Assembly: GCA_964016885.1 (NCBI GenBank)
Contig: OZ024761.1
Span: forward strand, 434,001-498,000
Length of the DNA: 64,000 nucleotides
From: Eledone cirrhosa
Lineage: Eukaryota
Direction of reading: 5' to 3'
In this document: in pieces, positions 50,637-51,373 of the stretch
How positions within the stretch are numbered: the stretch's first letter is position 1
Layout of the letters: every line of letters starts with the position of its first letter
Made by a program: the position numbers and the translations under genes
Notes under the pieces: model-generated
Told to the model about the DNA's origin: nothing
Database searches by the model: none
Seen by the model: only the letters and a program-made list of their open reading frames with translations

Positions 50637-51373
50637 GGATATAATGCTCTGAAATAGCGATATATATGTGAAGACAAACATAGAATATTCGAAAATATTC
50701 TGTATGTTTATAATAAACATTTTGAAGACCCAATCGCTATAGAATAGAATACGTCACGTATTACAATTTGAGATTCTCGATAAAAGCAAGGGAAGTAACC
50801 TACGCGTTTCATTCTTATTAGAAATCATCAGGATTACATATCCAATGCTTTTATCGAGAACGACACAGCTAGAGACTTATAGAATACTTAGCTGTGTACT
50901 AATGATTTCTAATAAGAATGAAACGCGTAGGTTACTTCCCTTGCTTTTATCGAGAATCTCAAATTGTAATACGTGACGTATTCTATTCTATAGCGATTGG
51001 GTCTTCAAAATATTTATTATAAACATACAGAATATTTTCGAATATTCTATGTTTGTCTTCACATATATATCGCTATTTCAGAGCATTATATCCAAATTCT
51101 AATTTCTGCCGGACCGGCTACCGCTCTTTCAAACCAGTTCCTGTACACAGCTAAGTATTCTATAAGTCTCTAGCTGTGTCGTTCTCGATAAAAGCATTGG
51201 ATATGTAATCCTGATGATTTCTAATAAGAATGAAACGCGTAGGTTACTTCCCTTGCTTTTATCGAGAATCTCAAATTGTAATACGTGACGTATTCTATTC
51301 TATAGCGATTGGGTCTTCAAAATGTTTATTATAAACATACAGAATATTTTCGAATATTCTATGTTTGTCTTCA
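50637..51373. mobile_element. Retrozyme-like locus: inverted copy (50637-50899) plus ~1.5 tandem copies of a 312-nt hammerhead unit (50902-51373)
   Basis: GAAACGCGTA|GGTTAC recurs at 50929 and 51241 (312-nt period) and in reverse at ~50800; no coding capacity; (TA)n on both sides. Confidence 0.75.
51182..51268 (+). ncRNA. Type I hammerhead ribozyme with extended stem I (mirror at 50774-50860, minus)
   Basis: TTCTCGATAAAAGCA-ttggatat-GTAATC-CTGATGA-tTTCT-aata-AGAAt-GAAAC-gc-GTA-GGTTAC-ttccct-TGCTTTTATCGAGAA. Confidence 0.85.

Follow-up and report, generated by a model that had tools for sequence, protein, structure and literature searches.

The 312-nt hammerhead-bearing repeat found in the window (the whole 64,000-nt stretch of Eledone cirrhosa DNA analysed here) is a non-LTR retrozyme, with cleavage and RNA circles predicted from its sequence. 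Its copies are mostly inserted as head-to-head two-arm arrays in (TA)n, which were found in 52/60 loci of the 312-nt group and in 25/31 loci of a position-ordered subset. With the unit numbered from u1 = 50930, the outer ends of these arrays are of two fixed classes, S ends at u132-141 (some few are shorter) and T ends at u162-172. One S and one T end are present in 48 of the 52 two-arm loci and no locus has two ends of the same class; the remaining four are atypical, one of them lying at an assembly gap. This is the footprint of a Penelope-like element (PLE), and, together with the coding control elements of the same genome, it makes a PLE enzyme class behind the insertions well supported.

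A retrozyme in one more invertebrate is ordinary by itself; the novelty lies in the insertion anatomy, whose value is mainly that of a testable mechanism. The publications consulted leave two questions open: how retrozymes return to animal genomes, and why PLE insertions bear an inverted copy and a tail on one side. What the family offers is a rule that can be counted, with one arm for each start site and arrays that are long from the outset, and a substrate that is young, plentiful and found next to intact Hydra-type ORFs. Twin-primed rolling-circle reverse transcription is therefore testable in the existing PLE in vitro assay.

Size and sampling of the family

The exact hammerhead 39-mer of the 312-nt group has 498 matches in the genome, and a 57-mer of the 310-nt sister subfamily has 13,322. 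Units are 312 and 310 nt long with 34% GC, and arrays reach more than 20 units. For the 312-nt group 61 loci were mapped, taken from the best sequence matches and from the first 100 of the 498 39-mer matches, so that this sample is biased to long copies. L042 was excluded as a duplicate of L043, leaving 60 loci; three loci had a third piece, which was disregarded. The 310-nt sample consists of the 15 first-listed loci of the 13,322 matches, all of which were mapped.

The repeat has the traits of non-LTR retrozymes: tandem units within 150-450 bp, GC below 50%, a type I hammerhead and no coding capacity. A target site duplication (more than 4 bp in retrozymes, when present) is unreadable in the (TA)n flanks of the copies. 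An autonomous PLE is defined by an ORF with reverse transcriptase (RT) plus GIY-YIG, and the repeat has no such ORF. The first-pass annotation had taken the repeat for a tandem type I hammerhead retrozyme family and not for the pLTR of a coding Penelope element; the genome-wide copies bear out the former, and the latter agrees with the finding that none of the 61 mapped loci runs on into a coding element. The assembly from set X4 (organism B) gave a single 342-nt contig going back 312, which fits a circle or a tandem repeat alike, and those from sets X1 and X2 gave many variant pieces with loose ends in AT runs.

A superfamily of sister units of ~316-345 nt with a common tail motif has 5003 pattern matches (L084-L102, L143-L177) and mostly a U3-A8 hammerhead core with a GUC site. 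The two-arm layout is also seen in those of the sister loci that were read by eye. A separate hammerhead-bearing tandem repeat, with ~500-nt units containing a microsatellite, is found at L053, L064, L029 and L049.

Layout of the window locus

The features of the copy in the window are as follows.

50532..50636: left (TA)n target tract, (AT)n sequence
50637..50899, minus strand: inverted arm, u214-312 and then u1-164, ending at the long, tail-bearing T end site
50637..50668, minus strand: one-sided tail, u133-164 (=51062-51093), a PLE-type 30-40-nt extension
50774..50860, minus strand: intact type I hammerhead motif, predicted cleavage after 50801
50900..50901: head-to-head junction, two extra bases (TA)
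50902..51373, plus strand: direct arm, u285-312, one full unit and u1-132
50930..51241, plus strand: a complete unit of 312 nt and 34% GC, flanked by predicted cleavage sites
51182..51268, plus strand: second intact hammerhead motif of type I, with cleavage predicted after GTA at 51241
51373..51452: right (TA)n target tract, (AT)n sequence

Most of what the first-pass annotation had described at this locus stands. The predicted cleavage sites are 312 nt apart, since GAAACGCGTA ends at 50929 and 51241; a third match to it lies on the minus strand at 50801-50810. The inverted copy does extend beyond the last direct copy, from which its final 32 nt (=51062-51093) are missing, and the inverted arm is not contained within the direct arm. 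As claimed, the inversion junction falls in the middle hammerhead, which has lost CUG and the 5' strand of stem I. The site at 50929 has no intact hammerhead core of its own. The absence of an ORF and the (TA)n flanks are likewise borne out: the longest stop-free frame in the element has 77 codons and (AT)n lies on both sides. The direct arm runs up to the short end site, S, which lies next to the ATATAT run of the unit itself, and the full unit has one private change (position 83, G to A). The copy has only one intact hammerhead per strand, and it is probably a poor source of released monomers, because the middle hammerhead is without its 5' half.

The hammerhead motif

The motif at 51182-51268 contains the core CTGATGA (51211-51217), a stem II with U.U at its base, GAAA, a stem III of 1 bp with a palindromic ACGCGT loop, and a long, interrupted stem I. 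The U.U base and the 1-bp stem III are thus combined in one hammerhead. Concerning stem I, the 6-bp and 15-bp segments of the extended stem described earlier are confirmed and the single internal loop between them is not, as a 3-bp piece had been overlooked; the stem consists of 6 bp, loop, 3 bp, loop and 15 bp.

The fold of 51182-51268 has z = -6.3, with 0/200 shuffles as good, and the whole unit as a predicted circle is self-paired (z -5.5). The catalytic fold, at -22.9 kcal/mol, lies above the predicted minimum of -31.7 kcal/mol. Rfam gave no gathering-level match, only Hammerhead_HH9 (E 0.023, 20.6 bits vs a cut-off of 52). Covariation was scored on 12 hand-picked relatives, the sister families having been reached via a diverged piece beside one locus, and the scores are inflated by related rows. 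In this set 93.9% of cells pair vs 81.0% in shuffles, the structure being drawn from the same sequences, and 7/11 stem pairs have compensatory changes on both sides. The tertiary 3-8 pair is CG in two of these relatives and UA in ten. Such a swap from C3-G8 to U3-A8 would be hard to obtain otherwise than through the hammerhead structure, and U3-A8 is described as a natural hammerhead variant (PMC4209133). Hammerheads with a 1-bp stem III are reported to cut poorly alone and well as dimers (PMC4209133, PMC7229834). Core changes are found in 7/163 full units (15 core positions), about the number expected from the per-base departure rate of 0.35%, and this count therefore gives no support for selection on the genomic copies.

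Insertion anatomy

According to PMC8557442 and PMC3846280, PLE insertions are recognised by a 5'-truncated inverted copy at their 5' end and by a tail of 30-40 bp on one side. The copies studied here have the inverted 5'-truncated copy, the tail at one end and an AT-rich or (TA)n target. A 30-40-nt tail is present at one end only in 48/52 two-arm loci of the 312-nt group and in 10/10 of the 310-nt subfamily. In the latter, 11/15 mapped loci are two-armed, and S and T ends occur together in all ten loci in which both ends were read.

An AT run adjoins 105/109 S or T ends. The S ends coincide with the unit's own CATATATAT, and the T ends have an overlap of about two bases or fewer. The junctions between the arms comprise 28 with microhomology, 16 with added bases and six that are blunt.

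Control elements and the search for a partner

Two coding Hydra-type PLEs of the same genome, PLE-A and PLE-H, served as controls. The 785-aa frames of PLE-A contain RWK, DKT and CxCx5C, the motifs by which the (TA)n-targeting Hydra clade is defined; the Hydra-clade call rests on these motifs because the Pfam GIY-YIG matches on the PLE frames are all sub-threshold. The two end sites of PLE-A are 115 nt apart and account for 29 and 11 of 41 terminal ends, with one end of each kind in 5/5 two-ended loci. Those of PLE-H are 70 nt apart, with one of each in 6/6 divergent pairs. PMC11167929 describes a purified PLE protein that in vitro cuts and extends both strands and begins synthesis at two internal positions, which delimit the tail. 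The Penelope-type mobilisation that the first-pass annotation had suggested is supported by the S and T ends and by the control elements, much more directly than by the grounds given there.

PLE-A (window 4543-6664 and flanks; L103-L142) has 150 scored copies with 99-100% identity and a microsatellite inside its UTR and is, judged from these copies, an active Hydra-type element. PLE-H has a 758-aa frame (L211:5965-8238, minus strand) and further loci at L178-L205. The tails of the two are 115 nt (PLE-A) and 70 nt (PLE-H), that of PLE-A being much above the 30-40 nt described.

The same annotation had named the nearby Penelope copies as the partner, and this was not borne out, their end sites having no evident sequence in common with the unit. 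PLE-A (4543-6664 and beyond) has unrelated end sites, and the fragment at 47022-48828 an unrelated end region. The end sites of the retrozyme were found in 0/30 PLE 5' ends sampled from 1743 pattern matches. A search by the tail motif returned sister retrozyme families only, and two widely spaced pairs among its matches were not pLTR-ORF-pLTR.

The hammerhead in the pLTR of PLE-H shares with the window family the core, the U.U-based stem II and the GUA site; the two have in common only this hammerhead core and site, and not the end sites. The window family's own sisters differ in this respect, and the pattern of the shared core has 25,316 matches, retrozymes included. A swap of the hammerhead core between PLE-H and the window family is possible.

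Template and array history

The positions of the inner ends of the arms were analysed for 100 ends, with two loci omitted (one gap, one complex junction). They are evenly spread over the unit (Rayleigh p 0.25), and four lie within 3 nt of the cleavage site, vs 2.2 expected. Because they show no excess there, the template was continuous across the cleavage site, and run-off from a cleaved linear monomer is ruled out by the lack of a pile-up. A circular or multimeric template had been proposed on first pass; the continuity that it implies is supported, and of the two a circle is more probable than an uncleaved multimer.

Arms are longer than one unit in 78/96 cases. The haplotypes of the two arms agree at nine diagnostic sites in 46/49 loci, vs 22% in shuffles, and a private variant is present in both arms at 7/51 loci. 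The 66 full units of eight young 310-nt loci, in which both arms are long, contain two departures, and three variants peculiar to L245 recur in all nine units of its two arms. L253 is the exception among the young 310-nt arrays, with nine departures in 24 units. Repeated copying of a single monomer would give rise to such near-invariant young arrays.

The arrays also change as DNA, so that the length of an arm does not simply reflect the number of RT rounds: the direct arms of the duplicates L042 and L043 differ by one unit, and two-unit blocks are repeated in L052, L053, L065, L069 and L073. In L057 and L071 a variant is restricted to one arm, and in L043 and L076 a single unit per arm carries one; these four loci would be better explained by two templates or by a multimer than by a single monomer circle. 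Within-array variants that recur on different backgrounds are seen at position 190 (10 loci) and also at 245, 181 and 276, and may reflect either a hot spot or mixed templates.

Proposed mechanism and alternatives

We lean towards a mechanism in which a Hydra-clade-like PLE RT-endonuclease would prime both cut strands on a predicted ribozyme RNA circle; the Hydra clade is probably the source of the enzyme. Tandem copies would be transcribed and cut after GUA, most likely in a double-hammerhead fold formed through the ACGCGU palindrome, and the monomers would be ligated into RNA circles, whose stability would follow from the poor cutting of a hammerhead that has a 1-bp stem III and stands alone. 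One strand of the nicked (TA)n would then start at about u132-141, where it can pair with the RNA's own AUAUAUAU, and the other strand about 35 nt downstream, at u162-172; these two starts correspond to the observed pattern of ends. Each RT would travel round the template for a variable length. Lastly, the products would be joined head to head at any position, mostly with the short microhomology or few added bases seen at the junctions, and the window copy is one such head-to-head product.

A broader proposal adds to one Hydra-type enzyme pair, one circle and two sites an origin of the core of the 310/312-nt lineage in a coding PLE, and this combination we hold tentatively, at somewhat under an even chance. 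If true, a single mechanism would account for the arrays of the retrozyme as well as for the inverted copy of PLEs and their tail on one side, and the core of a lineage that now has more than 13,000 units would have been taken from a coding PLE.

The same enzyme and start sites could also act on an uncleaved linear read-through transcript of an array, with circles as a side product. Such a multimer accounts for continuity across the cleavage site, would be left by a weak hammerhead and suits the single-unit variants in both arms of L043 and L076; in addition, uncleaved, unprocessed RNA is the main substrate of the anole PLE in vitro, as reported in PMC11167929. We nevertheless regard a linear template as unlikely, since array length could then only stay the same or shrink from one generation to the next, whereas in young loci, each uniform for its own haplotype, 5-10 near-identical units are present in both arms. 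Moreover, the only inner junctions shared by independent loci are those at the hairpin of the unit, and no arm carries the junction of another locus. The DNA-level gain or loss described above (L042/L043 and the two-unit blocks) would be in keeping with insertion by a PLE of arms of about one unit and later satellite-like growth by unequal exchange, a scenario discussed in bioRxiv 10.64898/2026.07.22.740005. Both arms are long and almost unchanged in L206, L207, L208, L245 and L252, which would need two independent fast expansions per locus and makes this growth very improbable.

We give the least credence to an inverted arm derived from fold-back or self-priming on the first product or from antisense RNA, an origin proposed for rotifer PLEs in PMC3846280. 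Overlaps of 15-33 nt are present at 4/50 junctions (L055, L060, L075, L072), at least three of them (L055, L060, L075) at natural hairpins of the unit, which speaks for fold-back. Simple fold-back fails as a general rule because neither arm lies within the other in 15/48 loci, the window locus included, and the rest are split 17 to 16. Most junctions are not palindromic, and fold-back alone does not yield the rule of one S and one T end, for which twin priming on a circle remains our preferred reading.

Comparison with known systems

Retrozymes of a mollusc and other metazoans have been published (coral, mussel and axolotl; Cervera and de la Pena 2020, PMC7229834). The family shares with the metazoan non-LTR retrozymes described there the tandem units of 150-450 bp, low GC, lack of an ORF, one type I hammerhead per unit and a self-paired predicted circle. 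In axolotl, Amex1 has a 1-bp stem III with a palindromic loop and Amex2 has U.U at stem II, whereas both weak features are found here in one ribozyme. Unlike those retrozymes, the family is inserted in (TA)n as double arrays that face head to head and have two fixed ends; the word 'inverted' is absent from the main text of PMC7229834.

With PLE insertions, as described in PMC8557442 and PMC3846280, the family has in common the divergent arms, the tail at one end, here of 34-36 nt, and the AT-rich or (TA)n target of the Hydra clade, as well as a hammerhead upstream of the start sites (PMC8557442, PMC11167929). It differs from them in that it lacks an ORF and has arrays of several units in either arm. 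Up to 8 nt of the S site are complementary to the target, whereas the anole start sites are reported in PMC11167929 as non-homologous to the cut DNA.

Like the Xenopus retrozymes, which are described as pLTR derivatives of PLEs (Li, Clavereau, Pollet 2026, bioRxiv 10.64898/2026.07.22.740005), the family is probably a non-autonomous passenger of PLEs. In that study the case is made from co-occurrence and pLTR similarity, the mechanism is left open and arrays are treated as local amplification, whereas the evidence here is the insertion footprint. No pLTR homologue of the window unit was found beyond the common hammerhead core.

In L1 twin priming both target strands prime on one RNA, which leaves an inverted 5' part. 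The mechanism proposed here differs in its two fixed internal sites, in place of poly(A) and a variable site, and in its repeating template. The literature search returned no work on cephalopod retrozymes or PLE twin priming, and no two-armed retrozyme insertions or rule of one arm per start site; subscription papers and supplements may hold either.

Other features of the window

A different (TA)n-flanked repeat end at 51640-51844 recurs beside many of the loci studied and probably belongs to another PLE, as its end. At 29279-29782 (minus strand) lies a frame that resembles an exon and includes a coiled coil; it has no Pfam match above cut-off and presumably resembles the N-terminus of a cGMP-dependent kinase. 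A LINE is present at 55582-58455 and 58404-59855 (minus strand), with an endonuclease-RT frame of 957 aa and an upstream ORF.
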